This document shows positions 6,101 through 40,713 of a stretch of DNA of 64,000 bases, piece after piece. The position numbers and the translations under genes are program-made. The stretch's first letter is position 1. The number at the start of each line of letters is the position of its first letter. The DNA is from a bacterium (GTDB lineage: Bacteria > UBA10199 > 2-02-FULL-50-16 > JAJFLM01): contig CBDCFN010000016.1 of assembly GCA_965216315.1 (NCBI GenBank), forward strand, positions 1,632,001-1,696,000. Direction: 5' to 3'. The notes beneath the pieces are model-generated. The model was not told the DNA's origin and made no database searches. It was given only the letters and a program-made list of their open reading frames with translations.

Positions 6101-7887
6101 ACCCGAATCTGTTCTTTCACCATATCAACGCCGGTAACTTCTTCGGTAATCGTGTGTTCGACTTGGAGGCGGGCATTGATCTCCATCGGATAAAAGTCCA
6201 TCCCGTCATAGAGACCTTCAAAGGTCGCAGCCCCGATGTAATCCGCTTCATGGAGCACGCGGACCGCATGTTGATGCATGCCTTGACGTTGACCGTTAGG
6301 AATATTCGGCGCCGGCGCCTCTTCGATGATCTTCTTGTTCTTCCATTGAATGGAACAGTCACGATCACCGACGGCAACACAATTGCCATGTTGATCTCGA
6401 ATCAGCTGAATCTCAACATGCCGCGGTGCAATGAGTTTGTTGACATAAACCGAGGCATCATCGTCATTGTCGATGGCTTTACGTTGGATATATTCGAAGG
6501 CCTGCATGAACTCGCGACGATCATAAAGAAAGACGATATGTTCATGTGGATTGTCGCTGGCTTTTAGCTGCTCTTCCGATAAATGGGACAGCACCAGCGG
6601 ATAACCTAGTTCATTCGCAACCGCCTCACCCTGTGACTGTGTCGCCACTTTATGCCACGGCTCATCCGACGGTCTCGGCAAGATAGCCTTTTCGATAAAG
6701 ACGGTGGGATTACCAAAGGCACGCAGTGCTCCCGCCTGTGCCTTTGAAAAGGCATCTCTCAACTCCGCTTCGTTGTGCACAAAGTAGATTCCTTCACCAC
6801 CGCCTCCCGCTGTGGCCTTAATCACGACAGGATATCCCAACCGCTCTGCAACCTGAATTGCCTGCTCAAGCGTATCCGCCTCACCCCAGGTTAATTGATC
6901 CGGATCGGCCAGCCGTTTGAAACCAATCTTATCACCAACTAATTCCATCGCCGACTTGCGAGGGCCGAGAAAGCGAGAGCCAAGCTCAGTCACCAACGCC
7001 GAAAGCTCCGGATTCTCCGAGGCAAAGCCCCAACCGGGCCACACTCCGATGTCGTTAGCCGAAAGCCCTTCCGCCTCCGCTTGTCTAATCACCTGCTCCA
7101 AGGCTTCGCGCAGGATGACATCAACATCGTTGTAGGCAAGGAGCTTCTTGGTCTTATCGGGATCATCATCCGTCGGATCCGGCACATCGCGACTATCCGG
7201 CACAAGTATCGCTTGATCCGCGTCGACCACAAACGGAGCCCCGGCATCCGCCTGCGTATACATGACGATCACTTCGATTTTTTCACCGCGTTCACGTTCC
7301 AACTCACGAACCGCGGTAATCAGACGCGAAGCCGCCTCACCCCGATTGGGTACAAAGATCTTCCGTAAATGACTTACCTCCGGCTCAACCGTTTCACCCG
7401 GGTCCGCATTCAACTGAACCGCCGCTATGACATTAAGTGGAGCCGGCTCGCCCACAACTGCCGACGTGCCAGCCATTGCAGACGTATCGACGACTGTATG
7501 ACTCCCGGCAAGGGCTTCCGGAGACAAAGCCGCCCTCATTTCCATTAACTTCTCTTCAATGAGCTGTTGAAGTAGGGGTGATTGATCGGATGCCTTCCCT
7601 TCTGTCGCCAGTTCATGCCCATGGTCGAGTACTTCTATCGCTCGAGCGCGAATGACAGCCGCATCAGTTTCTGGATGGAGCTGATCCGCTGTCAGCGAAG
7701 TCAACGGTTGAAGATGGCCGCGGAATGTATCTAAGCCGCGTTGCAAATAAGGATCATCTTGCAGAAGCGTTTGTGTCGACTGAATGTTGTTGAGTATTTG
7801 CGGCTCTTGAAGAACACCGGAGGCCGCTAAGATTCCGGTAGAAGTGAGCGACAATGAGGAGGTCGCTCCGATGGTAAATAGACCCAT
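121..7887 (-). CDS. Single-chain acyl/acetyl-CoA carboxylase (BC-BCCP-central-CT) with about 170-aa N-terminal extension and C-terminal biotin-protein ligase (BirA-like) domain
   Basis: BC motifs NRGE, PGWGFASEN, IKATAGGGGEG, MEINARLQVEH; biotinyl motif EVMK; CT motifs SSGAGISMD, ANLSGFDGSPES, RYHGGAYVVF; BPL motifs STND, QKAGRGRTG, KWPNDI, KLAGILIE. Confidence 0.9.
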   Translation of the reverse strand: MGLFTIGATSSLSLTSTGILAASGVLQEPQILNNIQSTQTLLQDDPYLQRGLDTFRGHLQPLTSLTADQLHPETDAAVIRARAIEVLDHGHELATEGKASDQSPLLQQLIEEKLMEMRAALSPEALAGSHTVVDTSAMAGTSAVVGEPAPLNVIAAVQLNADPGETVEPEVSHLRKIFVPNRGEAASRLITAVRELERERGEKIEVIVMYTQADAGAPFVVDADQAILVPDSRDVPDPTDDDPDKTKKLLAYNDVDVILREALEQVIRQAEAEGLSANDIGVWPGWGFASENPELSALVTELGSRFLGPRKSAMELVGDKIGFKRLADPDQLTWGEADTLEQAIQVAERLGYPVVIKATAGGGGEGIYFVHNEAELRDAFSKAQAGALRAFGNPTVFIEKAILPRPSDEPWHKVATQSQGEAVANELGYPLVLSHLSEEQLKASDNPHEHIVFLYDRREFMQAFEYIQRKAIDNDDDASVYVNKLIAPRHVEIQLIRDQHGNCVAVGDRDCSIQWKNKKIIEEAPAPNIPNGQRQGMHQHAVRVLHEADYIGAATFEGLYDGMDFYPMEINARLQVEHTITEEVTGVDMVKEQIRVAEGYRLSVKSTPEPRGTAFEVRIYAQDADEEFAATSGTLKLFRPPTGKGIRADVAVRQGDVITAGYDPTLLKLIGKGRDRNSARAVTMRGLTDLAVDGVRTMRGFAIEVMGHQVFGDIAYSNKWLQDHYMPMRKPWEVKQYSHEALVAAAILAYRKQRSAYDNGVLATLRKGRLPKLPPRKEAEFVFALFGREYRLSVSERSGDYLVSINGRDYTVDLETKGPSGSEFNMTIDGKRVPIIGSEKQGAYPISVNGVAFTVDNPPVGEVRATQNGTVLRYEKKPGDVVNVGDVIAVLEVMKIEQPLKAQVPGILEEYLVSENAAVLQGKLLVRIKEPDDRPPPEAPQLEFRPTGETEVQQLFHVAPGTEDFAAGIVNIVGNFPESYREMTALLRDASLNYDPLQRLYTSVPKGFERQDELSPYAQGIFDALGHAVNQDVGDELIAEEAVKILDAFIDVEMLFQRHALRGSVEKRSLFDQFDDFIQTRQVSDPAFGAILSQALSHHGVSSIDEPSEGLDRALVRMRIAREETKIRQMLMLRVFDWLQSLWDAGALRGPQGKLVATLEKFNHLDRDVVKLTHAAQGLLFTLNESELGKVSRDDADQRVAELIKKAKGFRAGSAERRGVIKEVSSLADATILGIIDHILGNDAEAAEIAAAIRFQRLYGDRHNIEAHTLNVKEQDLYSFGIFKDQESGVRRAVVGLSAGRDPLGQNGIKNLIKRGIKSLEDFHRGATDLGAQETVDNTLELIIPELTGDMRDIERLAERIPSLIGFVDPNRQIKRITLTFVMGEAGTFYLTYRPDLERQGMFVEDVLFRGIHPYRAAQLELWRLRRHWEVERSQTPWEWNHLFKLTEKDPSGKKKKPDRRLFAYSIVRHLSPQSDGNGTLRYPEIDLAFGQAIHSIRSESQEGWAAHRIHMLIRAEVTATPDQMKRAIARLAPRIRGMQIEETNVRLMRWRPSEDQPFQDMLFRIRNPGGTGLKMKAVKPLGKPEGYVKPRSAYKMRVARNEGLGLVEAYQYVQDLTADEGYGRGEFHELDIENPRLIKDEQTGEHRATYDLIEVNRERGNNTGKVVFGELKRPTQRHPEGIRIMQIVNDATYGLCPLQEPECARIIAAIDYAEKHGLEIDWKATSSGAGISMDKGVENLDWTALVMRRLGEFCDAGGVVNILVDGGNIGAQSYWDANATMEMTRRGVLIKAANSYTALTGNRAQMISGSVGAEDNLGLAGAERVTGPIGETQFYVETISEGRRLLWQHHDLTWHAPGQILVDQWETSDHHGRDVTKYRYVDPALTDKSAEEVLAEQAARAAEKEQLEKALEALELQAESDEGISSADATEMGKILNRLEELASIPTITVYDIGEILADKEKKKPFPVAAVMASIRDQDAPVLQRWHLWKKGGADLIRVEETAIGGIPTTMIGIDAQSLPREGEIPPGYPDSWSGSTLFPEGSKKVARAINAASGRTDLVVVANLSGFDGSPESLMNNQLEWGTAIEEAVRNYKGKLAFLVTTRYHGGAYVVFSRVINDNATVGAVDNTFASVIGGNIATKLIFPRKINAAAEELLKTDSSWQLRLQKVTSPQDIEKIRRAARDEVEESFRLEYDGIHTVDKAVAVGAIHEVVPANQIRPWYIRNLNEGREVYRAQVDAQIDVWLNSFTTFAAMGDAGVEQWEKAVKSMGLGPFILTRRQDTPRSESPERPVPRAVAVDKPLVESPRPVKDADSIDIDAIKTLGEGFRSLDLGIAAGRIGRSIFAFESVGSTNDVAKALLDQNVMLGTVVIADQQKAGRGRTGNTWVSRKGAGIYMSVAIRPSVEKNVIPKMTFATAAAVARAVGAISDSQPTIKWPNDIYLRDAKLAGILIEQHGDGAFVVGIGLNTNATVEDLSGIGKPATSLAIDTGKSWDQAMVLKRLLEALESEMQRLNEGGWPDIVSYVRGRSYLKDKRVHIMNGDEITASGIVRDVSPDGSLLLEAKGKIEVITSGTVELDRASRPPERK

Positions 7888-7956
7888 GCCTGAAAACCCC
7901 AGACCTTTCGAATGTAACGATCCTCCCCATGAGGAGGCCCTCGACGCAGTTCTTTG

Positions 7957-7981
7957 TTCGGACTCAAGGGGTAAAAGTTGC
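7957..7981 (-). promoter_or_regulatory. Sigma-28-like promoter, copy 1 (giant carboxylase)
   Basis: Minus strand GCAAC-TTTTACCCCTTGAGT-CCGAA (CAAC-N15-CCGAW), about 70 nt upstream of ATG 7887. Confidence 0.7.
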
Positions 7982-8019
7982 TAATTTTTTCGAAATCGAA
8001 ACGGCGAAGATAGTAAGTT

Positions 8020-8032
8020 TAACTAATTGATA
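8020..8032 (-). promoter_or_regulatory. IHF-consensus site
   Basis: TATCAATTAGTTA matches WATCARNNNNTTR exactly. Confidence 0.5.
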
Positions 8033-8049
8033 TAATTAAATTTATGCTG

Positions 8050-9882
8050 CTATTCGGTCACGATGTTGTCGAGGCGGTCGAGGGCCTTGATGACAACCTC
8101 CCGCAAGATCGCATTGTGGGCCTTATAGGGGGCCCGCGGGACGCTCCGCAAGAACACGATGCGGGCGGGTGCCAATCCCTTGACCCCGGGCCCGGCAACA
8201 TTTTCCATATGTCTGAGCAGCTCAACCTCGGTATACCGAGCCCCCCGGGCGAGCACAACGGCAGCGACAACCATTTCTCCCAGTTTCTTGTCCGGGATTC
8301 CAACGACGTGACAATCCTGAATTCCCGACATCCCACGCATATGATTTTCAATCGTCCGTGGAAAGACGGCCTGGCCATTGGTCACGATCTTTTCGATCGA
8401 GCGCCCAAGTACCGTAAGGAAGCCGTCCTCATCCAACTTACCGAAGTCATCGCCCTCACGGAATCGCCCATCGGTCAGTGCGTTCTTGACGTAGATCGTC
8501 CCGACTTGACCCGGACCCAGGATCGTACCGCCCTGGTCGCGAATCTGAATCTCAACTCCCGGTGCGGGGCGCCCCACGGTCTCTTTATGGGCGAGTAATT
8601 GATCCGGTCTAAGGACGGTTACCAAACCAAATTCCGTCGTCGCATAATTTTCCCAGATGATGGGCCCGAACACGCCGACAGCAAGCTCCTTCAATGAAGG
8701 ATGAAACGGAGCCGCTCCGACGTAAATGGCCCGCAACGAATCAAGTTTATAATCGTGGTGAGAATCGGCAACAAACATACACAAGCTTTTCAACCAATGC
8801 GGCGAGGTCCAAAAGTTGGTGAGTTGATGGTTATCAATCAAATCTAAAGTCGCTTCCGGATCAAAGGCGAGGCTCGGGGTTTCATCGAGCATCACCATTG
8901 CCCCGCGATTGAGATGTCCCTTCGCCCAGGAGTGCGCACCGCCATGATAGAGTTGGCCCACAACGAGGTTTTTGTCTCTTTCAGTAATTTGAAACAGGCG
9001 GTTCGCCTTGCGTCCGACGTTCGCATCGCGCTTAACACGGACTAGCTTGGGCTCACCGGTCGTTCCCGAACTCATCATCACGGGACCCGGATACTCAGGC
9101 GCAACCATATCCGCACTCGCGGCTGGCGGTCGTTTAAATTCTTTAATGATACTTCGGTAGTGAAGAACGTTCGGATACTTGTTATCAATGTCGACCACAA
9201 TCGTTCCCATCGCCTCAAGCAAGGGAAGATAGAGTTCGATATGCAGTAAACTTTCATGATCGAGAAACAACACGCGATACGGCTGAGCCCGTAGTTTCTC
9301 CATGATCTGATCGCGTGATAGATAAGAATGAAAATTGGTGTACGCCACACCGGCACGCTTGGCTCCAATATTGATCGAGAAATGTTCAACGCGATTCCGA
9401 CTGAAGAAGATGGCGACTTGTTGATCATCCGAGTCACGACAACCCGCAATGAAGCGACCGAGGATATCCGCATGGGCGTCCAACGTCCCATAGGTTAACC
9501 CTTCCGTGCCTTGTCGCACTGCCACACGCTGTCCCCAACTAAAGGCATTTTGCGCAATCGGATCGGTTCGATTGATCGGACCCGGCGTCATCCGACTCGT
9601 CAGGTCGCTCAATACACCACGAATTTGCTCGCGGGTCGGTATGCTGAGCAGCGTCGGCAACGTATAACTCCCTAAAAAGGGATGGACTATCTGGGACTCG
9701 TGACCGCGCCAGTAGAGATCCTGGACGTCTTCCCAGATTTCTCCGTCGGTGAGCTGATCATCCGAGTGCATGTGCCGTTCGATTTGCGCAAGCTCCTCCG
9801 TAAAGGCCGCGACGTTGAAAGTCCCGCGGCTGGCACAGAGCATAGGGGCAACCATGAGCTGGGTCGCCAAATTGGATGACAT
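8050..9882 (-). CDS. AMP-binding (ANL superfamily) acyl-CoA synthetase-like protein with N-terminal extension
   Basis: MSSGTTGEPK P-loop, YATTEFG, GIPDKKLGE; start moved to ATG 9882 because the promoter motif overlaps the 9915 start. Confidence 0.8.
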   Translation of the reverse strand: MSSNLATQLMVAPMLCASRGTFNVAAFTEELAQIERHMHSDDQLTDGEIWEDVQDLYWRGHESQIVHPFLGSYTLPTLLSIPTREQIRGVLSDLTSRMTPGPINRTDPIAQNAFSWGQRVAVRQGTEGLTYGTLDAHADILGRFIAGCRDSDDQQVAIFFSRNRVEHFSINIGAKRAGVAYTNFHSYLSRDQIMEKLRAQPYRVLFLDHESLLHIELYLPLLEAMGTIVVDIDNKYPNVLHYRSIIKEFKRPPAASADMVAPEYPGPVMMSSGTTGEPKLVRVKRDANVGRKANRLFQITERDKNLVVGQLYHGGAHSWAKGHLNRGAMVMLDETPSLAFDPEATLDLIDNHQLTNFWTSPHWLKSLCMFVADSHHDYKLDSLRAIYVGAAPFHPSLKELAVGVFGPIIWENYATTEFGLVTVLRPDQLLAHKETVGRPAPGVEIQIRDQGGTILGPGQVGTIYVKNALTDGRFREGDDFGKLDEDGFLTVLGRSIEKIVTNGQAVFPRTIENHMRGMSGIQDCHVVGIPDKKLGEMVVAAVVLARGARYTEVELLRHMENVAGPGVKGLAPARIVFLRSVPRAPYKAHNAILREVVIKALDRLDNIVTE

Positions 9883-9906
9883 GAGACCTGTAAACACAGT
9901 GGGCTC

Positions 9907-9931
9907 ATCGCACATTTTCGGAAAAAGTTGT
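9907..9931 (-). promoter_or_regulatory. Sigma-28-like promoter, copy 2
   Basis: Minus strand ACAAC-TTTTTCCGAAAATGT-GCGAT (one mismatch in the -10 element). Confidence 0.55.
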
Positions 9932-10032
9932 TTATTTCTTAGGGGTTATCTTCGAATCCTTGCGAAAGAATCGCCGGTTGAGGCTTCGCGATAGATCTGC
10001 TAAGGACTCGATTCACATAAGGAGCTAAGTTC

Positions 10033-10413: not shown

Positions 10414-10495
10414 GATATTGTTTTTCCTTGCGTATTTTGGGGTTAACTCGATATAAGGCCCCCGCCTTTTTCATTAATTTATAAGGAGATCTTCA

Positions 10496-12502: not shown

Positions 12503-12509
12503 TTTTATT

Positions 12510-12537
12510 GTAGGGGCGACCGGCCGGTCGCCCCTAC
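12510..12537. repeat. GTAG-type REP-like perfect palindrome between convergent genes
   Basis: GTAGGGGCGACCGGCCGGTCGCCCCTAC, 28-bp perfect palindrome overlapping the stop of the permease gene. Confidence 0.7.
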
Positions 12538-18290: not shown

Positions 18291-19225
18291 ATCTGCCTCG
18301 GCTTGGCTACTATGTCTTATTCACCTTAGTCATGCTCACGGCAGCGACGGCCTGGCAATGGTCTGACGCCATTCGCTTCGCCCAAGTGCCTCAGTTGTGG
18401 TGGGAACCTATCGCAGCGGGAATCTTGACCGGCTGGCTCAGCGCGCTCTTGGGGGCCTACTTGGTCCTGAATCGGGTCGCCTTTCTCGGCCTCGCCGTCT
18501 CCCAAGGCGCTGGCCTCGGGATTTTCTTAGTGTTCTTAATTGGGGGTTGGCTCGGCTGGGCGGTCGAACCGACGCTTTGGCCAGTCCTCGGTGGTATTGT
18601 CCTCGCCACCGGTACGGCTGGCCTCTTCGCTTGGTTGCGCGGACGCCCCCATATCTCAGAAGAGGCGATCACCGGTCTACTATACGTGGTCGCCGCCGGA
18701 CTCACGATCATGATCGGAGATCGTCTCAGTCACGGTCATCACGAGATTGATGACTTTCTACTCGGAAATGCCGTTGCCGTGTTGCGCCGTGATCTCATCA
18801 CAATTGCCACGGTCACAATAACCTTGAGTGGGATCCACTTCGCTGCAAAAAAATATTTTATTTATTGCTCGGCTGACGAAGAGTTCATGCGGAGTCGGGG
18901 AATCCCGACCCGCCGTTGGCTTGGATTACTGTTCGTGACACTAACCATTGGCATCACCTTTGCCGTCAAAACCTTAGGGCTCCTGCCAGTCTTCGCCTTA
19001 CTGCTCATCCCGGCCTTTATTGGACTGAAAGGGGCACGGAATATGTTGGACGCCTTTAGTGTCGCCCTCTTTATCGGCGCAGTCTGCCCGCCATTGGGCT
19101 ATTATTTTTCGTTCTTATTCGCTTTTCCAACCGGGGCCACAATTATCTTTGTGAGTGGACTTTATTTGCTGTTCAGCTGCTTGAAGTTTAGGCCCGTCTT
19201 CGCCCAAGCAGTTAGAGAGAGATGA
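18287..19225 (+). CDS. Metal ABC transporter permease (ZnuB-like)
   Basis: ABC-3 permease pattern, PTGATII, multiple TM segments, ATGA overlap with the ATPase gene. Confidence 0.85.
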   Translation: MNLPRLGYYVLFTLVMLTAATAWQWSDAIRFAQVPQLWWEPIAAGILTGWLSALLGAYLVLNRVAFLGLAVSQGAGLGIFLVFLIGGWLGWAVEPTLWPVLGGIVLATGTAGLFAWLRGRPHISEEAITGLLYVVAAGLTIMIGDRLSHGHHEIDDFLLGNAVAVLRRDLITIATVTITLSGIHFAAKKYFIYCSADEEFMRSRGIPTRRWLGLLFVTLTIGITFAVKTLGLLPVFALLLIPAFIGLKGARNMLDAFSVALFIGAVCPPLGYYFSFLFAFPTGATIIFVSGLYLLFSCLKFRPVFAQAVRER

Positions 19226-19502
19226 CAAACGGAGGTACACGCGGTGCAAAATCGAGTAGTGGTTGGCGGGGAGTAAGAGATTCTGTTTCCGGAACGTCGG
19301 AATCAATTGACTCCAATGAAATCGGAATGGTGCTCGGCTCAACCGCGTCGAATGTATTGAGGTCCTGACCGGCATGACAAACCGAACAAGGAACTTCTTT
19401 GGCAGCCGCATGCGCTTCATGCGCATGGAAAACTAAAACGAGCTGACTGCACAATACCGCAGCAGCAACGAATATAGCCCATTTTTTACTAACCTTACCC
19501 AT
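19212..19502 (-). CDS. Second DUF2946-like protein (TM segment, HAHEAH, CxxCH, C-terminal RVPP)
   Basis: MGKVSKKW-hydrophobic-HAHEAH..CSVCH..APRVPPF; same layout as 14351..14647. Confidence 0.6.
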   Translation of the reverse strand: MGKVSKKWAIFVAAAVLCSQLVLVFHAHEAHAAAKEVPCSVCHAGQDLNTFDAVEPSTIPISLESIDSDVPETESLTPRQPLLDFAPRVPPFVISL

Positions 19503-19536
19503 TGGAGCGGGCTTATTCTCTAGAAAAGGAAAGAAG

Positions 19537-20028
19537 TCAAGCGTCGTCTTTGGCTTCTTCGGCAGGTGCCTCTTCTTTTGGCTTTTCTTGGGGCTCTTCT
19601 TTCGCAGCTTCAGCGGGATTTTCTTCGGCTTTCTCTTCCGCAGGCGCCTCTTCCGGCTTGGCCTCCTCCTTGGGAGCTGCTTCGGCCTTTGCCTCTTCCG
19701 CGGGGGTTTCCTCTGCCGGCGCTTCAACTGCAGGAGCCGCCTCTTCCGCTGGCTTCTCGGGCTCCGGTTCCTTGACCTTAATCTTGCCCGCAGCAACCAG
19801 CTTGGCCTTCAATTTTTTGAGTTTCGGAGACAGCTTCTTTTCTTCACGATCGGTAAGAAACTTTGTAATCCCGCCCGCCTCGTCCAAAGCCTTGAGCCCT
19901 GCCACTGAAATTTGCAGGCGAACCGTCTTTTTCAGCTCAGGCACCTCAATCTTGCGTCTGAGCAGATCCGGACGCTTCTGGCCCTCAGGTGTCTGGTCCT
20001 TTTTGAGTGTAATTTCACAAAGATTCAT
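19537..20028 (-). CDS. Divergent ribosomal protein bL28-like protein with Glu/Ala/Pro-rich tail
   Basis: CEIT..K, RLQISVAGLKALDEAGGITKFL..LSPKLKKLK match long-type L28; the GNNVSH..TKRRF loop is absent. Confidence 0.65.
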   Translation of the reverse strand: MNLCEITLKKDQTPEGQKRPDLLRRKIEVPELKKTVRLQISVAGLKALDEAGGITKFLTDREEKKLSPKLKKLKAKLVAAGKIKVKEPEPEKPAEEAAPAVEAPAEETPAEEAKAEAAPKEEAKPEEAPAEEKAEENPAEAAKEEPQEKPKEEAPAEEAKDDA

Positions 20029-20082
20029 GGCGCTATCACTTAATATCTATGCCTACTCGACGCAACTAAAAAATAGCCTGCA

Positions 20083-20682
20083 TTAAAACGAGCTTCCAGG
20101 CTGACTGAGGAATTCTTCCTCAGCAGGGGTTGTTTCGCGACCAAGGATCTTGTTGCGATGGGGAAAACGGCCATAGCTCTCGATAATCTCAAAATGGCGC
20201 ACGGCGAATTCATAGGCACTTTCCAAGGCCTGATGGATCTCAGGTAACTCTGCAGATTCATCGGACAAACGTCGATAGGTCTCAACGGAGCGCTGCTGCA
20301 TGATCAAGCTCTCAGAATGCATCATCGGCATGTAAAAAAACCATCTCTCGACCATGTTTAATTGATCTGCAAAACCTTGTTCCTGACCGGAAACAGAGGT
20401 CGCTAATGCGAGTTCATCATAAAAAAACATGCTTTGCGTATCCCGATAGATATTCCGGGAAAACTGGTCGGTTAGGATGATAAAGGCCAAACAACTCTTC
20501 GCGGCATTTTTCCAACTATCCAACTGGCCACTCGCGGCCGCGGCGAGATCATCCTCAAATGATATCTTAATTTGAAGATCTAACTCTGGATCCTTCGTCC
20601 ACCACATCTTGACGTTCTTGAGCGGTTGCTGTTCATCCGTACCAAACCAAAAATCAAGAATCTCTTGAGAACGGCTCATCAC
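20083..20682 (-). CDS. DUF924 family protein
   Basis: EILDFWF, DQFSRNIYR, FFYMPMMHSE, GRFPHRN..LGR. Confidence 0.9.
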   Translation of the reverse strand: MMSRSQEILDFWFGTDEQQPLKNVKMWWTKDPELDLQIKISFEDDLAAAASGQLDSWKNAAKSCLAFIILTDQFSRNIYRDTQSMFFYDELALATSVSGQEQGFADQLNMVERWFFYMPMMHSESLIMQQRSVETYRRLSDESAELPEIHQALESAYEFAVRHFEIIESYGRFPHRNKILGRETTPAEEEFLSQPGSSF

Positions 20683-23273: not shown

Positions 23274-25070
23274 CTAACCGAGTAAATCACCGGATGAAAA
23301 CTCGAAATCCGCTTCTGGAATATAAAGCGTAAACACACTTCCCTCATCAAGCGCACTTTCCACGGTAATGAATCCCTTCGATTCATTCACGATACTTTGA
23401 ACAATAGCGAGACCAAAACCGCGACGATTTTCTTCGAGAGTCGGATCATTGTGGCTGGATACTCTGAACTCGAAGATATTGAGCAGCTTATCCTGCTCAA
23501 TTCCATGGCCGGTGTCACTAAAGTCTATCCGGACATACCGCCCCGCCCTAATATTGTGTCTGTTAAGCCGATGCTTAGGCATATTTCGCATCGCCTCGCG
23601 GTCAAGTTCAAGGCTCTGCACGCTTATTTCCAAGTATCGCTCACTTGACTCCCTCATCGCATCAATCGCATTCTGAACCAGAGCTCTTATCGCCTCTCTA
23701 AAACGACTCGGATCGACTTCGACCATCGGAGCCGGTGAGTTAACCTTGACCTTCATCTGCACACGATCATCCGTGAGCAAATCTTGCAGCGCCTCTTCAG
23801 AAATCAATTCAGCAACCTGAAAGCGATAAGCGTCACCCGCGCCGCTACTCATGCTACGCAGGCTTTCTATTTTACGAGCGGTCTCTTCAACGGTTTCTTG
23901 AGGGAGAAGCAACTGTGGAATCAGCATATCAATGATGGCTATGAGCAGTGCTTTTGCCGTCGTTGCCCTTTCCATGCGCTCTTGAGGTGCTGCTTGGGCA
24001 AACCGTGCAATTCTCTGGGCTGCCGCATTGAGCGCCACAGCAAGCTCGTCTTCACCAACTTTTATCACTAAATCTCGAAGCATTTGGAGCAAACGCCGCG
24101 GTTTTTGGACCTGCATAGAAATTTTCTGGTTTGAATTCTGGACATCATGGGCAATTCCCGCGGCGACCTCTCCAAGTATTTGCAAGACGCGCCACCTCGC
24201 GCTCCGCTTCTTCTCTTTTAATTTGTTCAGTCAAATCATCGTATGACCGACGCATGGCTGCCATCGCTTTTTTGCTTTTACTCCGGTCAATACAAAAATA
24301 GATCCCGAAATTATTGCCTGTTATCATGCGCGCGTAGAGATCCACCGAAACATAAGAACCATCACTCTCTAAGCAACCGTATATCGTTCACGTAAACTCC
24401 AGATGTCATGATATCACTGAGCACGGATCCCAAAGCGACCTAAGTCCTCGGGGTGAATATTTTTCATAAAATCTCTGTCGGTTAGCTCTGCCTCCGTGAA
24501 GCCTGAGATCCGTTCGTTAGCTTGGTTGCACATCATCAGGCCGACACCCTCGGGCCCAATGACAAAGGCACCCGCCGCGACACTCAGGCTTTCAATCATA
24601 GCGCGAAGTGGCAATACGATCTCATCATGGGTCTCAACTTCAATGATTTCAGGTTCGACCGGCAATTGGTTGACGTCGACGCGTATCATCGAAGGCTGAG
24701 AGGGCCGCCGTTTAAAGCTTCGACTCGTCGGCGGCGTTGTGGAATGCAGTGGACTCACACCCTGTCCAATCAAATCCGTTAATTCTTGGAATTTGGTGTA
24801 ATCAAAGTTGTCTGCAAGGGTCGACGCGGCCGCCCCAAGGGCCATAAAAACTCTTTGCCTTAATTCCGGAGTTTCCTCCGTCTGAGCCGCACTGGCTAAG
24901 GCCGGCGCCAGAATCTGAACCGGTTCGGCCAACAAGACGGCACTGCTCAAACGATCCCAATTGTTTCGCAAACCCTCTGTCGCCTGGCTAATCGATTGCC
25001 CCGCCTGCAACCCCGTCGTGGCTTGGAGCAGATTACTGACCAGTAAATTGTATGTCGAAATGTGAGACAC
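23274..25070 (-). pseudogene. PAS-domain sensor histidine kinase with N-terminal extension, interrupted by three +1 frameshifts
   Basis: PAS (CNQANERISGFT..IHPEDL), H-box AAGIAHDVQN, N-box NAIDAM, DTGHGI, GFGLAIV; breaks near 24433, 24367 and 24186. Confidence 0.75.
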
Positions 25071-25099
25071 CGCTATTTACCCTGACCCTTGCGGATCTC

Positions 25100-25124
25100 A
25101 TCGGAGCAAGCTCGAAAATGTTGT
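25100..25124 (-). promoter_or_regulatory. Sigma-28-like promoter, copy 3
   Basis: Minus strand ACAAC-ATTTTCGAGCTTGCT-CCGAT, about 30 nt upstream of GTG 25070. Confidence 0.65.
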
Positions 25125-25316
25125 GGGGTATTTTTGCCTATTTTTTCAGCTACTTAAGAGAGATATCTCGACTCGCAGGCCCACTTTCGCTCCTGCCCCC
25201 AGCTGATTAAAATCATTATATTTTTTAGACTTATCCACAGATCGTTCTCAAATTAATCTGCAACAAAAACGGTTAAATATTTGTCCTTTGATTCAGATAG
25301 CGCTAGTCAGGGGCCC

Positions 25317-26366
25317 ATGTTAGCCCCACCGCGCATTAACGGACTTGCAACGGCCGCCCCCGCAACAAAAGTTCCGCAGCCAGATGCGAAAGCGTATTTC
25401 ACCGAACTTTTTCGGAAGGGACTTGCGGACGTCGACCGCCTGAGTTCCGTCTTCGACAACGGCCGCGTCGATAACCGTTACATTGCAGAATCGTTAGAAT
25501 GGATGGGAAGTCAGCACAGCTTTGAAGAAAAGAATCGGCTCGTCATTGATCACTCGGTCGAAGTGGCCGCTGAAGCCGCCGAGAAGGCCTTTGCTGATGC
25601 CGGTATCCATGCCAAGGATATCGAAGCCTTAGTGGTCGTTTCATCCTCGTCAGTCGCCACACCGAGTCTTGATGCCTTACTAATCGAACGATTGGGTCTT
25701 TCGCGGCATACGGTGCGTCAACCGATGTTCGGGTTAGGCTGTGCTGGCGGCGTTGCCGGCATTTCTCATGCGGCGGATCTGGCACGCAGCATGCCGGGAC
25801 GCAATGTCCTCTTCATCGCCGTAGAAATGAACACCCTCACCTTTCAATGCAACGACATGTCGAAGACCAACTTTATCAGTTCGAGTCTCTTTGGCGATGG
25901 GGCTGCTGCCGTCGTGCTTAATACCTGGGGAGACGGTCCCAAATTTATCGGTCGCCACAATACTTTACTGCCAAAATCCGAATGGGTCATGGGCTGGGAG
26001 GTCATCGAAACAGGCCTCAAGGTCCGCATCTCTACCGATATTCCTTCGGTCGTCGATATCCAACTGCCACAGCTCTTTGAAGATGCCTGTGATCGCTGGG
26101 GCGTGTCCCGACAACAAATCCGTCACTTTATCTTGCATCCTGGCGGCGCCAGAGTACTGGATGCCTATGTTAACACCCTGGACCTCAGTGAAGAAAATCT
26201 TAAACATTCGAGTGACGTGCTTCGGGAATTTGGCAACATGTCGAGCCCAACCGTCTTATTTGTACTCGATCGATTCCTAAGAGAACCTCCTGAAGCTGGT
26301 GAGTATGGTATCTTGCTGGGCTTTGGCCCCGGCTTCAGCGCTGATCAAGCCCTCCTCCAATGGTAA
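25317..26366 (+). CDS. Type III polyketide synthase (SrsA/BpsA-like)
   Basis: Catalytic triad motifs GLGCAGG, HPGG, GNMSSPT; LFGDGAAA; GFGPG. Confidence 0.92.
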   Translation: MLAPPRINGLATAAPATKVPQPDAKAYFTELFRKGLADVDRLSSVFDNGRVDNRYIAESLEWMGSQHSFEEKNRLVIDHSVEVAAEAAEKAFADAGIHAKDIEALVVVSSSSVATPSLDALLIERLGLSRHTVRQPMFGLGCAGGVAGISHAADLARSMPGRNVLFIAVEMNTLTFQCNDMSKTNFISSSLFGDGAAAVVLNTWGDGPKFIGRHNTLLPKSEWVMGWEVIETGLKVRISTDIPSVVDIQLPQLFEDACDRWGVSRQQIRHFILHPGGARVLDAYVNTLDLSEENLKHSSDVLREFGNMSSPTVLFVLDRFLREPPEAGEYGILLGFGPGFSADQALLQW

Positions 26367-26875
26367 GCCTATTCTTTTGGATCTTCATTGCCGTTGTTAC
26401 GGTACAACGCTTATTTGAATTATGGTTGGCCCAACGAAATCAGAAAATTGCCCTCGCCGCAGGTGGAGTGGAACACGGTACCAGTCACTACCCTCTTATC
26501 GTCGCCCTTCATGCCCTCTGGCTGGTGGCCTGGATCATTGAAAGCTTGGCTCGCGGACCCTATCTCAATAGTTACTGGATTATTTTTCTCGTCTTAGTAA
26601 TGCTTGCACAAGCTCTGCGTTATTGGGCGATCAGCTCGCTTGGGAGCGCCTGGAATACCCGCATCATCGTCATCCCTGACGGCGAACGGGTCAAACGAGG
26701 CCCCTATCACTTTGTTTCACACCCTAATTACGTCGCCGTCACCATTGAACTCGTCTGCCTCCCGATGATCTTTGGGGCCTGGATCACAGCCATCGTAGCG
26801 ACTATCATTAATGCCATTGTCCTGCTTGGAATTCGTATTCCTGCGGAAAATCGCGCGCTAAAAAGTCTTCAATAA
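26360..26875 (+). CDS. ICMT-family methyltransferase (SrsB/BpsB-like)
   Basis: QRLFEL, LRYWAI..LG..WNTRI, GPY..HPNY; overlaps the PKS stop. Confidence 0.9.
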   Translation: MVSLFFWIFIAVVTVQRLFELWLAQRNQKIALAAGGVEHGTSHYPLIVALHALWLVAWIIESLARGPYLNSYWIIFLVLVMLAQALRYWAISSLGSAWNTRIIVIPDGERVKRGPYHFVSHPNYVAVTIELVCLPMIFGAWITAIVATIINAIVLLGIRIPAENRALKSLQ

Positions 26876-34310: not shown

Positions 34311-34358
34311 CCTCGCGATCCTCTTGCGAAAACTTGTAAGCAATTTCAGTTAAAGAAC

Positions 34359-34383
34359 AAAACTTTTTAACTGATTGGCAGAT
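34359..34383 (+). promoter_or_regulatory. Sigma-28-like promoter, copy 4
   Basis: AAAAC-TTTTTAACTGATTGG-CAGAT(AA), 11 nt before ATG 34395. Confidence 0.5.
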
Positions 34384-34394
34384 AACATAGGCTC

Positions 34395-35603
34395 ATGAGT
34401 GCATTCTACGGCCTGACATCAGCTGCAAATCCTTTGCTCGCTTCAGCAACTACGCAAGTAGTAGTCATGAACCAATACGATCGTAATGTCGTTCTCTCAG
34501 AGGCGAGTCGATCGGGCTGTACGGATGTATTGTTGCTAACGAAACCGCGTACGCGTGTTTCGCTGCTGGACCCCGAGCGTAATGCGCGTGGCTTCCGCAT
34601 CTTTTACCCGGATTGGGGTTCGATGGGTTATACGTCAACCTTGGCTGAGGCGAGAGATATCGATCCGATCAGTACGTCAGACCCTAAAAGAGCGTTTGTC
34701 CAACTCGCTATTTCAGCCCGTCATGGTAAATTGCCCCAAGGCAATCTCATTCCCATACCCTATGGCAGTGTCATGCAGATCGGAGCACTATCCGTGGCCA
34801 CTCTCTTGTCTGACCGACTCCGCTCTTCACGAATCAACTATATTCCACCCTGGATCCGTGACGTGGATATTCTGCTGCTTAGCGGAACTCTGACTCACCC
34901 TGAAGCTTTGAGTGATTTTATCAAAAAACAGCGAGGGCCAGGACCTCTGTTATCATTTTATCCCCGCAATCAAGACTATACGGCCGACCGCAAGGAGTGG
35001 AATACCTGGCCGTCGCACATGATAGGTCTCGGACCAAGCACTCAGTATCACGCCCTCGCCAGCTATCAAACAAAACCGCAGCATCCCGGGAAGCCATTAA
35101 AAGATCGCCTCGACTTTTCCATTCACTCATCACCTATGCGTGATCCGTCAAAGTGGGCTAATACAACCAAGACACACAAAAAAGAACACGAAATCGTCAA
35201 TAAAGAAAAACGCTTTCAACTGACGCTAACGGTTCGCTATAAACGTGAAATAAGTGACCGATTAATGAATTTTTTCTCAATCGACACTGATACATCCGTT
35301 GCACGGGCGCGGGCTGATTATGCCTCCAATCAAACAGGACGCCTGGTTGCAAAATACTTGGCTTTTCTTGAAAGAAATCCCGGCCATAGCCAAACCGAAA
35401 GGAGTGCGTATTTAGAAGGTCTCTACGATGACATGCACTCATCAGCCAGAGCCGTCTGGCAAAGTCCGGCAGCTACGCACGACACAGAAATTCTTCGAAC
35501 TGTTGATCGGAAGCAGTTTCCACGTGACTGGGTCCAGGCTTTTGCACTCTATCTCGAATTATGGTTCTATGAAAATACCAACCACGCCGGTCCCTACCGC
35601 TAA
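34395..35603 (+). CDS. Hypothetical protein (no family recognised)
   Basis: 402-aa ORF filling the intergenic space. Confidence 0.65.
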   Translation: MSAFYGLTSAANPLLASATTQVVVMNQYDRNVVLSEASRSGCTDVLLLTKPRTRVSLLDPERNARGFRIFYPDWGSMGYTSTLAEARDIDPISTSDPKRAFVQLAISARHGKLPQGNLIPIPYGSVMQIGALSVATLLSDRLRSSRINYIPPWIRDVDILLLSGTLTHPEALSDFIKKQRGPGPLLSFYPRNQDYTADRKEWNTWPSHMIGLGPSTQYHALASYQTKPQHPGKPLKDRLDFSIHSSPMRDPSKWANTTKTHKKEHEIVNKEKRFQLTLTVRYKREISDRLMNFFSIDTDTSVARARADYASNQTGRLVAKYLAFLERNPGHSQTERSAYLEGLYDDMHSSARAVWQSPAATHDTEILRTVDRKQFPRDWVQAFALYLELWFYENTNHAGPYR

Positions 35604-35648
35604 TTCTCTCTAGTCTTTTCTAAAGAGACGCGCTACATAGCGCCAAGC

Positions 35649-36848: not shown

Positions 36849-36880
36849 GATAGCACTGAGCTCTCTGAAACATCGACTTT

Positions 36881-37336
36881 TTAGAGCACTGAAAATGTTC
36901 GTGCCATGATCGATAAAGGACCCATAAACATGATTTGGGGTATCGCTAGGAGAATAATACCAAGCTTCACATTTTCTTCGACATCAACCACACCGACTAG
37001 CACCCTATTTGAATTCGTACACTGTGGAGGGATTTCATAGGTGACTATCTGAACCGGTCGACCACCCGCTCGATTCTTTTCCCATGAAGTCACCGGAATC
37101 AGTTGATTGCCGCGACCACAAATTTTTTGATAATAGATATGCCCGCTAGTATCGACGGTCACGACATGGGAATTGCCATAAGCATCCTTGCCACGAGCCT
37201 CCAAGCGCCCATCGCTATGCCCCTGTTCAGCGGAGCAAAATTGCAGCGCACTGTTGACCGTATCCTGTAGCTTTGAGCTGATTGTCGTATTGTTGCCCAA
37301 ACGAGCCGCGAGTTGCGGACAAGAATTTGCACCCAT
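36881..37336 (-). CDS. Hypothetical protein with C-terminal hydrophobic segment
   Basis: SD AAGGAGG, 151 aa. Confidence 0.65.
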   Translation of the reverse strand: MGANSCPQLAARLGNNTTISSKLQDTVNSALQFCSAEQGHSDGRLEARGKDAYGNSHVVTVDTSGHIYYQKICGRGNQLIPVTSWEKNRAGGRPVQIVTYEIPPQCTNSNRVLVGVVDVEENVKLGIILLAIPQIMFMGPLSIMARTFSVL

Positions 37337-37370
37337 GAGAGCACCTCCTTAATCAACGCAACACTGATTT

Positions 37371-37395
37371 TTCGGCCGGGCCACTGAAAAGTTGC
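37371..37395 (-). promoter_or_regulatory. Sigma-28-like promoter, copy 5
   Basis: Minus strand GCAAC-TTTTCAGTGGCCCGG-CCGAA. Confidence 0.7.
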
Positions 37396-37427
37396 GAAAA
37401 TTCGCAAATTTTCGAAAAAATATGACA

Positions 37428-37440
37428 TAAGCTACTGATT
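37428..37440 (-). promoter_or_regulatory. IHF-consensus site between divergent promoters
   Basis: AATCAGTAGCTTA matches WATCARNNNNTTR. Confidence 0.5.
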
Positions 37441-37458
37441 TGATTGGATTTTCTACAA

Positions 37459-37483
37459 GCAACCTTTGCGAGCTCACACCGAT
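37459..37483 (+). promoter_or_regulatory. Sigma-28-like promoter, copy 6
   Basis: GCAAC-CTTTGCGAGCTCACA-CCGAT. Confidence 0.7.
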
Positions 37484-37491
37484 GAATGGAC

Positions 37492-38421
37492 ATGCTCGCG
37501 ATGCAGGTTTTGAATCTAGGGGTAAGTGGGGTCCTGACGGCCTACAGCGGACAAGCCCCGCACCGGCAAGCCATTCCTCAACCGAATCCGTCTGCAGGGC
37601 GCCCCCTTCACCATTTTCGAGCGATGTGTCGCTTTGAACCCGCACAGCCCTACCTTAACACACTGCGAACACAAAATTTCGCTCCAAAGGTTTTCAGACT
37701 TGAAGGTCGGGAGGAATCCTATGTGCTCCATCAATGGCCCCTGACCGCCATTCGGTCAATAGAACGTTTCGCCAACGATCCGGAGCTTATTGGCGACCGA
37801 GCTGTATTTGTCGGGCATTCAGCCGGGGGCTTTCCCCTCTATATACTTGCCTGCATTGCCAAAGGAGCCCGCCTCGAAGATATTCGCAATGCACTCCCGC
37901 CGATCGACGCGATCAACGCACTCGATGCGATTTCTCCGTCGCAATATGCAACACTTGCGAAGTCACTGAGTACGGCCCTCTTCATCAGCATAGGAACTCC
38001 TTATAATGGCATCCATTTGACCGACTGGTTTCGTCCTCTACATGACCGAGTCGTTGCAGCTTTTGATCCCTTGCTAATAAATAGTTTGCGCAAAGATTTT
38101 GTCGATACCGTATATCGCCGTATCGGCCTCCGCCCGGAGCAAGTTATCCACGGACAGATGATCAGTAATGCGGCGCCCATCAAATTAAGTCGAAATCCGC
38201 GCACTCTTCCAATCGAAATCATCATGCAAGGCGGTATGCGTGCTGTTGCGCTTATTACTGAATACAAAATATATGATGGCATTGCCCCGTGGGCCGCGGT
38301 CTACGTCAGCGGGATTCCCGAACATGAGATCGTCCAGTTCGATCATCTGCGCCTCGTCGAAACAGCAAAACCTGCTGAACATCTGATGGGATTGATCGAC
38401 CGCAGTGACAGCCACCGCTGA
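37492..38421 (+). CDS. Alpha/beta hydrolase (lipase/esterase-like), paralogue A
   Basis: FVGHSAGG nucleophile elbow, SIGTPYNG, DGIAP, HL; start aligned with paralogue B. Confidence 0.75.
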   Translation: MLAMQVLNLGVSGVLTAYSGQAPHRQAIPQPNPSAGRPLHHFRAMCRFEPAQPYLNTLRTQNFAPKVFRLEGREESYVLHQWPLTAIRSIERFANDPELIGDRAVFVGHSAGGFPLYILACIAKGARLEDIRNALPPIDAINALDAISPSQYATLAKSLSTALFISIGTPYNGIHLTDWFRPLHDRVVAAFDPLLINSLRKDFVDTVYRRIGLRPEQVIHGQMISNAAPIKLSRNPRTLPIEIIMQGGMRAVALITEYKIYDGIAPWAAVYVSGIPEHEIVQFDHLRLVETAKPAEHLMGLIDRSDSHR

Positions 38422-38467
38422 TTTTTTTCACTTTCCTTCCAGCAAAATAATTCGCTACTTAACCTCC

Positions 38468-39217: not shown

Positions 39218-39238
39218 TCAGCCTCGCCCGCTTAACAC

Positions 39239-39263
39239 ACAACCTTCTCGCGGTCTCACCGAT
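39239..39263 (+). promoter_or_regulatory. Sigma-28-like promoter, copy 7
   Basis: ACAAC-CTTCTCGCGGTCTCA-CCGAT, 9 nt before ATG 39273. Confidence 0.7.
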
Positions 39264-39272
39264 AGGAACGGC

Positions 39273-40214
39273 ATGCTGGTGGCGCATATGCTCAATCTGG
39301 GCGTAAGGGGGCTCTTTGGGCTCTATTCCGCTCGCGCGGCCCATCGTCAGGCAGCGCCACTCGCGGATCCGATTGATGGGCGCTCCCTCCATCACTTTCG
39401 GGCCATGTGCCATCTGGAACCGGCTGAACCCTATCTCAATACTCTTCGATCGAATGGCTTCACGCCCCATGTCTTTCGGCTGGAAGGGAAAGAAGAAAAG
39501 TTCGTCCTCGATCAATGGCCCCTGACCAGTGTGCGCGCCATCGAGCGCTTTGCAAAGAACCCTGAATTAATCGGGGAAAATCCCATCTTTGTCGGTCATT
39601 CCGTCGGTGGTTTTACGGCTTATCTCTTGGGATGCATCGCGCAAGGAGTTGCGCTTGCAGATATTCACAGAGCGATTCCGGAGATCAGTGCCCTCTCCGC
39701 CTTGGGCGGAATCAGCGCTGATCAATACCGTGATCTGCAAGCGGCTCTCAGTACAGCCCTCTTTTTCAGTATTGGCACGCCCCACAATGGAATCTACCTC
39801 AGACGCTTCTTTCGCCCCTTTCATGACAAGATTATCGCACGCATTGATCCTCTTTTCATCAATGGCCTGCGCAGAGAACTCGTCCAAAGCGTTTATGAAC
39901 AAACCGGCCTAAAACCTGAGGCGGTAATGCATGGCCAAATGCTCAGCAAGACCTCCAGCTGGAATCTAAGCTGGAAACCGTGGGCATTCCCCTTTGAGTT
40001 CATGATGCAGCTGAATCTGCGCCTCTTTGCGCGTATTGCCGATTGCTCGGTCTACGACGGCGTGGCCCCCTGGTATTCCATCTACGTCGAAGACATTCCC
40101 GAACACGAAATTGTCGAACTCAACCACCTACGCATGGTGGAAACGCCGGAAGGCGGACAGCACCTCGTCAATCTCATTCAGAGAGCTGAAGTCAGTAGGA
40201 GTCCCTCCTCATAA
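39273..40214 (+). CDS. Alpha/beta hydrolase (lipase/esterase-like), paralogue B
   Basis: FVGHSVGG, SIGTPHNG, DGVAP, HL; colinear with 37492..38421. Confidence 0.75.
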   Translation: MLVAHMLNLGVRGLFGLYSARAAHRQAAPLADPIDGRSLHHFRAMCHLEPAEPYLNTLRSNGFTPHVFRLEGKEEKFVLDQWPLTSVRAIERFAKNPELIGENPIFVGHSVGGFTAYLLGCIAQGVALADIHRAIPEISALSALGGISADQYRDLQAALSTALFFSIGTPHNGIYLRRFFRPFHDKIIARIDPLFINGLRRELVQSVYEQTGLKPEAVMHGQMLSKTSSWNLSWKPWAFPFEFMMQLNLRLFARIADCSVYDGVAPWYSIYVEDIPEHEIVELNHLRMVETPEGGQHLVNLIQRAEVSRSPSS

Positions 40215-40253
40215 ACTCAGTTCGGACGACATGTCCGCAAACTATCGTATTCA

Positions 40254-40333
40254 TATTTATAAATTATATTGAATTTATAAATAGCCGCTGAAATTAATTT
40301 ATAAAATTAATCAATAATTTCAATTATTTATAA
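40254..40333. repeat. AT-rich block with a 12-bp inverted repeat and four ATTTATAA copies
   Basis: TATTTATAAATT-N6-AATTTATAAATA; ATTTATAA at 40255, 40273, 40297, 40326. Confidence 0.55.
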
Positions 40334-40396
40334 TTTTTTTATCAATGATAATCTATACTTCTGTATACATATTATTATACATTTTAGAATTTATTC

Positions 40397-40422
40397 GAAA
40401 CTTCCCGCAAGCGACCACCGAT
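40397..40422 (+). promoter_or_regulatory. Sigma-28-like promoter, copy 8
   Basis: GAAAC-N16-CCGAT(AA), spacer one base longer than the others. Confidence 0.5.
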
Positions 40423-40473
40423 AACTCCTATCGAACGCAAAAAACATTAACTGCACTTACAAGGAGGCCTATC

Positions 40474-40713
40474 ATGGCAAACCCAATTAATGGAAACAGT
40501 GGAAGCATAGCTGTAAAAATCGACGCGGCAAAAGCCGTTCAAAAAGTCCTTCAATGCAAGGACGGAGAGAGCCAGCTCTCACCCGTGTTTAATCAGACCT
40601 GCAAAGACATGGATAAAGTCCTTGAAAATCTGACGAAACCTCGGCCGAAGTCTCTAACCTTCAATCGCTTAGGCGGCCGATTTAGTCTTCGTTCGCGTTA
40701 CAAAGCACAATAA
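40474..40713 (+). CDS. Small hypothetical protein (79 aa)
   Basis: Strong SD AAGGAGG before ATG 40474, followed by a terminator. Confidence 0.65.
   Translation: MANPINGNSGSIAVKIDAAKAVQKVLQCKDGESQLSPVFNQTCKDMDKVLENLTKPRPKSLTFNRLGGRFSLRSRYKAQ

Follow-up and report, generated by a model that had tools for sequence, protein, structure and literature searches.

A sigma-28-type promoter and an uncharged N-terminal tag mark candidate cargo of a type III apparatus in an uncultured bacterium

What unites a scattered set of bacterial genes whose products, several of them large metabolic enzymes, begin with residues that are almost free of charge, and where might such products act? The question is raised by a 64,000-nucleotide stretch of DNA, here called the window, that covers positions 1,632,001 to 1,696,000 of contig CBDCFN010000016.1 (C16:1632001-1696000) in a 2.96-Mb genome, 98% complete, of an uncultured lineage. 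A sequence-only reading of the window had quoted eight N-termini and proposed that their owners form a sigma-28-controlled regulon of effectors with type III-like export leaders. All eight N-termini are found in the sequence where that reading had placed them. The results presented here reveal that the N-terminal tag and the regulon are real and unusual, and that the genome harbors a type III export apparatus. The tag is tentatively interpreted as the export signal of this apparatus, which appears to be needle-less, and the tagged proteins as its cargo. Overall, the earlier interpretation is partly supported.

A shared promoter and the N-terminal tag

The genes are preceded by a common sequence with the consensus (C/A)GCAAC(T/C)TT(T/C)-N10-(A/G)CCGA(T/A)(A/G)A, or, in its short form, GCAACTTT-N11-RCCGATAA. 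The strict form occurs 28 times in the genome, compared to zero times in shuffled sequences and once for the reversed pattern. A position weight matrix (PWM) trained on these 28 sites of the same genome finds 104 sites with a score of at least 16, where approximately 7 are expected. Promoters recognized by sigma-28 have the consensus TAAA-N15-GCCGATAA. The -10 box found here, RCCGATAA, and its spacing agree with that consensus; the -35 box is GCAACTTT rather than TAAAGTTT. The proposed sigma-28-type control is borne out for the window as far as a common promoter is concerned, with weak matches for an acyl-CoA synthetase gene (12.8) and a gene for a 402-aa protein (12.9), and with a variant before a 79-aa gene that escaped the ungapped PWM. 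Five sequencing runs were listed for this DNA; none was of RNA, and four DNA runs that contain it came from a single study.

The N-termini were compared in a crude set of 2427 genes based on open reading frames (ORFs), of which 91 lie behind a promoter site; the N-termini of the control genes are imprecise in this set, which blurs the contrast. An N-terminus was termed tag-type if residues 2-25 include at most one charged residue. This is the case for 48 of the 91 promoter-linked genes and for 238 of the 2336 other genes (odds ratio 9.8, p=1e-22). The first charged residue has a median position of 28 in tag-type genes versus 4 in other genes. Residues 2-25 of the tag consist of 15.7% Ala, 16.2% Leu, 14.1% Ser and 8.9% Thr, with only 1.4% Asp, Glu, Lys and Arg combined, a composition that agrees with the charge-poor, Ser/Thr-rich first 20-30 residues of type III substrates. 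A Gibbs search returned a loose core, [LMG]x[SA][SAT][LSA]L[AL][AS][GST][SA], at positions 8-24 in most tag-type proteins, and many contain a loose xSSLLASxS. A motif score of at least 14 is reached by 76 of 12812 candidate N-terminal starts and by 2 of 8903 internal ATGs, a control that is independent of the crude gene calls. Altogether, 144 genes have a tag-like N-terminus: 49 are behind a site scoring at least 16, 13 are behind a site scoring 12-16, and many of the remainder sit directly after a promoter-bearing gene, such as a 1991-aa gene discussed below. The claim that the leaders are all charge-poor holds as a genome-wide class and fails for one of the eight proteins, a 151-aa regulon member that is not tag-type because it has three charged residues in positions 2-25. 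A myristoylation-type start (MGxxxS/T) was considered by eye and is not general among the tags.

The tag appears to be translated and conserved, judging from alignments: it aligns at the protein level in homologues of 45-55% identity, one of which, 45% identical and encoded in a metagenome-assembled genome (MAG), aligned from residue 1. It also recurs, with its peptide motif, on non-homologous proteins. In two genomes of the same family, 11 of the 18 readable ORFs behind the promoter pattern are tag-type. One of these genomes (G002) encodes an orthologue of the window's giant acetyl-CoA carboxylase (ACC) with the promoter, a tag-type N-terminus and approximately 159 residues before the BC domain.

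The genome's strongest promoter sites (26-33.5) are in a tandem array of approximately ten genes at C16:2163562-2187322. Several of these genes encode Cys-rich proteins, paralogous to one another, that share a conserved CDLYGASNL..GLCRANPGTAYG block at the N-terminus, match no Pfam family and are not tag-type.

The type III apparatus and its sigma factor

The genome contains a single FHIPEP gene, which scores as SctV (TIGR01399, 806 bits against a cut-off of 692) over FlhA (698 bits against a cut-off of 772). It belongs to a cluster at C16:339-360.5 kb that encodes two FHA/YscD-type proteins, a SctJ lipoprotein, a FliG-like protein, SctL/FliH, SctN/FliI, YscO/FliJ, a FliK/HpaP-like ruler, FliM- and FliN-like proteins (SctQ-like), FliO, SctR, SctS, SctT and a 147-aa TPR protein. 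SctU is encoded apart from this cluster, alone at 805 kb. The public records nearest to SctV are MAGs labelled Archangium, Chlamydiales or Deltaproteobacteria, with 46-53% identity. The search for type III secretion system (T3SS) genes that the sequence-only reading had suggested as its own check thus returns one export apparatus, comprised of SctV, J, L, N, O, Q-like, R, S and T, with SctU elsewhere. The flagellar version of the proposal is rejected because no Flagellin_N or Flg_bb_rod domain was found and the gate scores as SctV. No flagellin, rod or hook domain was detected in the 98%-complete genome, so that the late flagellar genes expected of a sigma-28 regulon were not seen. Searches of the genome for a FlgM-like anti-sigma factor and for a Flp pilin also gave no match; the Kil/Tad partner system was not otherwise searched.

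Two candidates for a T3SS secretin were rejected. A 974-aa protein, the only strong secretin of the genome, is encoded in a type II operon with GspE, GspF and pseudopilin genes. A 253-aa orphan (C16:16617-17378) has weak Secretin_N and Secretin matches, lies among housekeeping genes and is far shorter than usual secretins.

Only five genes of the sigma-70 family were found: one RpoD-like, RpoH, two of the size of extracytoplasmic function (ECF) factors, and one FliA/WhiG-like. The ECF-sized gene located in the window matches ECF models. The FliA/WhiG-like factor, a 299-aa protein, is the only one of its kind in the genome and is encoded within the type III cluster (C16:350511-351410); FliA/WhiG is its best family (TIGR02479), at 133 bits and thus below the cut-off of 189.6. 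No promoter site of at least 16 lies within the apparatus operons (339-360.5 kb), and the two genes right after sctT have sites of 18.7 and 19.2, the first of the two genes being tag-type. This arrangement mirrors the class-2/class-3 order of flagellar genes. The first gene (C16:360590-362743) also encodes an HExxH motif, and its product is possibly a zinc protease encoded beside the apparatus.

A model that is consistent with these observations can be outlined. Approximately 60-140 proteins, including the eight of the window, would be doubly marked by the sigma-28-type promoter and the N-terminal tag. The promoter is most likely read by the FliA/WhiG-like factor encoded in the type III cluster. 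The tag, approximately 20-30 residues long, uncleaved-looking, uncharged and rich in Ala, Leu, Ser and Thr, would be followed by a linker of 20-170 residues and then by an ordinary enzyme fold, and would direct export through a needle-less, flagellum-derived type III apparatus. The old flagellar logic would be retained, with apparatus genes on other promoters and late substrates on the sigma-28 promoter, the late substrates now being enzymes and signalling proteins. The promoter, the tag, their association, the apparatus and the untagged copies described below can be read from the genome itself, whereas the sigma factor that reads the promoter, export by way of the tag and the destination of the proteins belong to the model.

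Several known systems have parts of this arrangement. In Pseudomonas syringae, the sigma factor HrpL is encoded with the T3SS, a hrp box precedes the effector genes, and effector N-termini are Ser-rich and acid-free, such that promoter and N-terminus together predict effectors. The genome described here resembles this in the placement of a sigma gene among the T3SS genes, in the promoter box and in the Ser-rich N-termini; the P. syringae export-signal rules are satisfied by 21 of the 91 promoter-linked genes and by 109 of the 2336 others. However, HrpL is an ECF sigma factor with a different box, P. syringae signals have no shared motif, and its effectors are neither leaderless nor central metabolic enzymes. 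In the flagellar class-3 hierarchy, governed by sigma-28 and FlgM, late substrates are expressed from sigma-28 promoters, and non-flagellar proteins can be exported via the flagellum, for example in Campylobacter. As in that hierarchy, the late candidates described here carry sigma-28-type promoters and the apparatus genes do not, and the N-termini are uncharged and uncleaved-looking. Unlike the flagellar system, no filament, hook or rod genes and no FlgM were found, and the gate scores as SctV rather than FlhA.

Two further systems are known from predatory bacteria. In Myxococcus xanthus, a member of a predatory 'delta' lineage, the T3SS* (mxan_2434-2464) combines a sorting platform with an export apparatus in the inner membrane, lacks secretin, needle and translocon, and has effectors that are only postulated (PMC12075869). 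The same core parts were found here, and the same parts were not found. The likeness is one of parts: SctV is approximately 42% identical to Archangiaceae/Polyangiaceae records, no closer than to flagellar FlhA. Unlike T3SS*, the system described here has its own FliA-like sigma factor, FliG-, FliM- and FliO-like genes, no Flp pilin that could be found and a visible candidate cargo set. In Bdellovibrio bacteriovorus, the attack-phase promoters have the form TTAAG-N16-CCGATA, which shares the -10 box and a similar spacing with the approximately 100 sites reported here, and FliA drives 92 of 140 of them (PMC3627812). Bdellovibrio is flagellated, whereas no flagellin or rod gene was found here and the -35 box is GCAAC. 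The word 'leaderless' is absent from the Bdellovibrio paper (PMC3627812).

Large non-flagellar sigma-28 regulons (PMC3627812) and needle-less type III systems of predators with postulated cargo (PMC12075869) are therefore already known. No description of the tag, the regulon or a secretion system of this lineage was found in the literature searched. Within that literature, a sequence-defined tag on approximately 60-140 proteins, coupled to a half-leaderless sigma-28-type promoter and present on giant metabolic enzymes such as ACC-BirA, is undescribed.

Proteins of the window and of the regulon

The features of the window are listed in Table 1. The largest is the ACC-BirA giant, in which the BC, BCCP, ACC_central and CT domains recognized by Pfam are all on one chain, as in eukaryote-type ACC. 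The Atlas clusters closest to it contain single-chain carboxylases of 1842-2041 aa, and a peptide-pattern search for close relatives of the giant confirmed none. Compared with the eukaryote-type single-chain enzyme, the giant additionally has BirA fused to its C-terminus and the tag at its N-terminus. Residues 1 to approximately 27 form the uncharged tag, which opens a 173-residue extension, with the N domain of BC beginning at residue 174. In the 67-nt leader of the gene (7888..7953, minus strand), an out-of-frame ATG, the start of a 58-aa ORF, is flanked by a short inverted repeat, CCTCC...GGAGG, that could form a regulatory hairpin. Directly 3' of ACC-BirA and on the same strand is the 1991-aa gene mentioned above (C16:1626042-1632017, occupying positions 1..17 of the window, minus strand). 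Its own N-terminus is likewise tag-type, its only match, to a carboxyltransferase, is weak (E=0.0016), and it may be a decayed or divergent ACC paralogue that is co-transcribed with ACC.

Table 1. Coordinates of the tagged or promoter-linked genes of the window and of their promoter sites
Feature	Position in window	Strand	Remarks
ACC-BirA giant	121..7887	-	2588 aa; BC, BCCP, ACC_central, CT, BirA (Pfam, translation)
Sigma-28-like promoter of ACC-BirA gene	7954..7982	-	PWM 20.8; start codon 67 nt downstream
Acyl-CoA synthetase	8050..9882 (long ORF 8050..9915)	-	AMP-binding and AMP-binding_C (Pfam)
Weak promoter-like site of synthetase	9904..9932	-	PWM 12.8; ~22 nt upstream of internal Met
PAS/histidine-kinase pseudogene	23274..25070	-	Tag-type N-terminus (GTG start) and PAS in 24414..25070; HATPase_c in 23274..24185
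Sigma-28-like promoter of kinase pseudogene	25097..25125	-	PWM 25.9
402-aa protein	34395..35603	+	No Pfam family; tag includes LLAS motif; start 8 nt past -10 box (leaderless)
Weak promoter-like site of 402-aa gene	34358..34386	+	PWM 12.9
151-aa protein	36881..37336	-	Strong promoter and Shine-Dalgarno site
Sigma-28-like promoter of 151-aa gene	37368..37396	-	PWM 28.9; divergent from hydrolase 1 promoter
Sigma-28-like promoter of hydrolase 1	37458..37486	+	PWM 30.6
Alpha/beta-hydrolase paralogue 1	37492..38421 (ORF from 37486)	+	GHSxGG elbow; leaderless start 6 nt past -10 box
Sigma-28-like promoter of hydrolase 2	39238..39266	+	PWM 27.4
Alpha/beta-hydrolase paralogue 2	39273..40214	+	55% identical to paralogue 1; leaderless start 7 nt past -10 box
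Variant promoter of 79-aa gene	40397..40424	+	GAAACTTC, 12-nt spacer, ACCGATAA; read directly
79-aa product	40474..40713 (within ORF 40345..40713)	+	13 uncharged N-terminal residues; AAGGAGG precedes

The synthetase peptide quoted by the sequence-only reading begins at an internal Met (window 9882) and is tag-type from there; the upstream ATG of the long ORF (9915) falls within the promoter-like site. The AMP-binding domain begins at residue 122 of the long ORF, leaving approximately 110 extra N-terminal residues, and the PAS domain of the kinase begins at approximately residue 180. Together with the BC domain of ACC-BirA, these positions show that the N-terminal extensions ascribed to the three large proteins are real. 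The description of the kinase as a signalling protein does not stand: between positions 24185 and 24414 the gene is interrupted by stops and changes frame three times or more, which marks it as a pseudogene. It still has a strong promoter and an intact tag. The two hydrolases (311 and 313 aa) have an invariant set of Ser, Asp and His and belong to a very narrow family, with three clusters in a search of 5.8 billion proteins; the database gene call for paralogue 1 begins three codons further downstream. The Atlas look-alikes of the 402-aa protein are fungal hypothetical proteins at 0.95, with low recognition (766), a weak lead.

Two other regions of the window were observed. An ORF resembling a type III polyketide synthase (361 aa), named by eye, overlaps a 171-aa membrane ORF by a few bases (25281..26875, plus strand), and the pair looks like the usual alkylresorcinol/pyrone-type gene pair. 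At 19212..20086, low-complexity ORFs overlap on both strands, one rich in Lys, Arg and Pro and one of 163 aa with a tail rich in Glu, Ala, Pro and Lys.

Across the regulon, approximately 32 of the 50 proteins scanned have no Pfam family. The families recognized among these 50 and four additional proteins include a DAG-kinase, two adenylate/guanylate cyclase-AAA16-TPR giants, GGDEF, LamG, malic enzyme, cysteine dioxygenase, RtcB, GDH, HAD, an Exo_endo_phos enzyme, a methyltransferase and two tag-type Ser/Thr kinases of approximately 980 aa. With its Ser/Thr kinases, cyclases, DAG-kinase, Exo_endo_phos, GGDEF and HExxH proteins, the repertoire looks effector-like, as far as domain matches indicate. 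Another member, encoded at C15:370001-381571 behind a promoter scoring 28.5, is a 3856-aa megasynthase with a tag-type N-terminus and no paralogue in the genome. Its NMO-like ER, MaoC dehydratase, acyltransferase (MPT) and SDR (KR) domains follow the order of a microbial type I fatty acid synthase (FAS); no ketosynthase domain was recognized in it by Pfam.

Some tagged enzymes have untagged counterparts. A free-standing BirA (TIGR00121, 193 bits) is encoded in the genome, as are a separate accC-type BC with BCCP and carboxyltransferase and a methylcrotonyl-CoA-type set adjoining HMG-CoA lyase. For GDH, malic enzyme and RtcB, the tagged protein is in each case accompanied by an untagged paralogue of 29-35% identity. 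The sequence-only reading had advised a check for a separate ACC and BirA, and both a BC/BCCP/CT carboxylase and a free-standing BirA were found. That reading had also held that export would be contradicted by a genome with no type III apparatus, or with the giant as its only ACC or BirA; neither situation applies, since the apparatus and a separate BirA and carboxylase are present.

An export signal or another role for the tag

The interpretation of the tag as a type III export signal competes with three others. It is improbable that the lack of charge simply reflects leaderless translation or a wrongly chosen start codon, with no function for these N-termini as peptides. Of the 48 tag-type genes, 24 begin 0-12 nt past the -10 box, 23 of these at 6-12 nt, such that the 5' end of their mRNA coincides with the first codons. 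However, 22 of these 24 close-set starts are ATG, at a fixed distance of 6-12 nt, and the other 24 tag-type genes have leaders of 14-90 nt, with a Shine-Dalgarno sequence in 12 of the 23 with a gap of at least 15 nt, and have the same tag. Leaderless starts are also found in 12 of the 43 promoter-linked genes that are not tag-type. Since the tag is present in both leaderless and leadered groups and leaderless genes need not have it, it is not a side effect of leaderless initiation, and its alignment in homologues and its recurrence on non-homologous proteins argue for the same conclusion. It is very improbable, in turn, that the tags are unusual Sec signal peptides of ordinary exported or periplasmic proteins. 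The tag motif often ends in small residues (A-S-x), similar to a signal-peptidase site, but a positive n-region is lacking, with Lys or Arg in residues 2-8 of only 2 of the 48 tag-type proteins compared to 66% of other genes. Hydrophobicity is low as well (mean KD12 of 1.47 versus 2.02 for other uncharged N-termini), and only 3 of 48, including two lipoproteins, reach a KD19 of 1.6, the level of a transmembrane segment. The regulon also includes genuine Sec and lipoprotein precursors, which do not resemble the tagged proteins, and some of the candidate cargo, such as the biotin- and ATP-dependent 2588-aa enzyme and the 3856-aa megasynthase, needs cytosolic cofactors. Along with RR in only 2 of the 48 tag-type genes, these counts agree with the earlier statement that the leaders have no Sec or Tat signal.

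The third alternative, the main rival, is doubtful but has more in its favor. The genes may comprise a stage-specific regulon under a sigma-28-like factor, in which the tag sorts or controls proteins inside the cell, by directing them to a membrane, pole or compartment or by timing their proteolysis. There is precedent in the attack-phase promoters of Bdellovibrio, where many of the genes driven by FliA are non-flagellar (PMC3627812). The tagged proteins are mixed with others: 43 of the 91 promoter-linked genes are not tag-type and include ordinary Sec and lipoprotein precursors and cytoplasmic proteins, which indicates a stage regulon rather than an effector-only regulon. The tagged set also includes a coherent lipid-synthesis line of ACC-BirA, the FAS-I-like megasynthase, malic enzyme, acyl-CoA synthetase, DAG-kinase and hydrolases. 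No ketosynthase of the FabF/FabB type was found in the genome, the best matches having 28 and 24 bits, so that the tagged ACC and FAS may be housekeeping enzymes, the cell's own lipid line. A family-restricted tag beside a class-wide SctV, and the failure to find an outer-membrane conduit, would suit this alternative as well. Conversely, the polarity of the tag speaks against anchoring in a membrane, neither a compartment nor a receptor for the tag emerged as a candidate, and the untagged copies of GDH, malic enzyme, RtcB and BirA fit a housekeeping copy alongside a repurposed one.

The type III export interpretation, which explains the data best but falls slightly short of even odds, is made plausible by the link between promoter and tag, the sigma factor in the apparatus cluster, the class-2/class-3-like split, the effector-like repertoire and the spare copies. 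Weighing against it, in addition to the mixed regulon and the possible housekeeping role of the lipid enzymes, are features of the apparatus and its distribution. T3SS_needle_F was not found in the genome, a weak test because control genomes gave no true positive, and no dedicated secretin was found beside the SctV cluster. There is no visible route past the inner membrane and across the outer membrane, and with neither needle nor dedicated secretin found, none is apparent for delivery into another cell. The tag is absent from the small proteins encoded in the SctV cluster, and the FliA/WhiG-like factor scores below the cut-off of its family. All 31 genomes sampled from the class have a FHIPEP/SctV gene and an excess of the promoter pattern, whereas a clear tag is confined to the same family. 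Further out, in small samples, tag-type N-termini were found in 4 of 19 cases in G023, 0 of 5 in G003, 0 of 6 in G007 and 0 of 6 in G030, such that the apparatus and the tag do not co-vary across the class in samples of this size. Moreover, if the FAS-I-like protein were exported with ACC, the cell would have no fatty acid synthesis unless it scavenged lipids.

The lifestyle proposed with the earlier reading, that of a predator or symbiont, is an inference. A much bolder version, which is distinctly unlikely, is that the family uses the needle-less machine and the tag to ship approximately 100 pre-made proteins into prey or host, including a complete fatty-acid line of a self-biotinylating ACC-BirA, a FAS-I-like megasynthase and a NADPH-supplying malic enzyme. 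The bacterium, in which no FabF-type synthase was found, would thereby outsource lipid synthesis to the cytoplasm of its victim. In that case, promoter and tag would spell out the cargo of a T3SS*-type system in readable form for the first time.

For the cargo of the needle-less type III system, the M. xanthus study refers only to 'potential T3SS effectors' (PMC12075869). Promoter and peptide tag together provide a short, testable list of candidates. Since half of the tagged genes are leaderless, they also offer a clear-cut setting in which to study how leaderless mRNAs made from an alternative-sigma promoter are translated. If the tag is not linked to the apparatus, it would still be a new, sequence-defined N-terminal mark on approximately 3-5% of the proteome. 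If it is linked, related genomes could be searched by rule for cargo of this kind, metabolic megaenzymes would join the proteins that type III systems can handle, and the class-2/class-3 logic of the flagellum would have outlived the loss of the flagellum itself.

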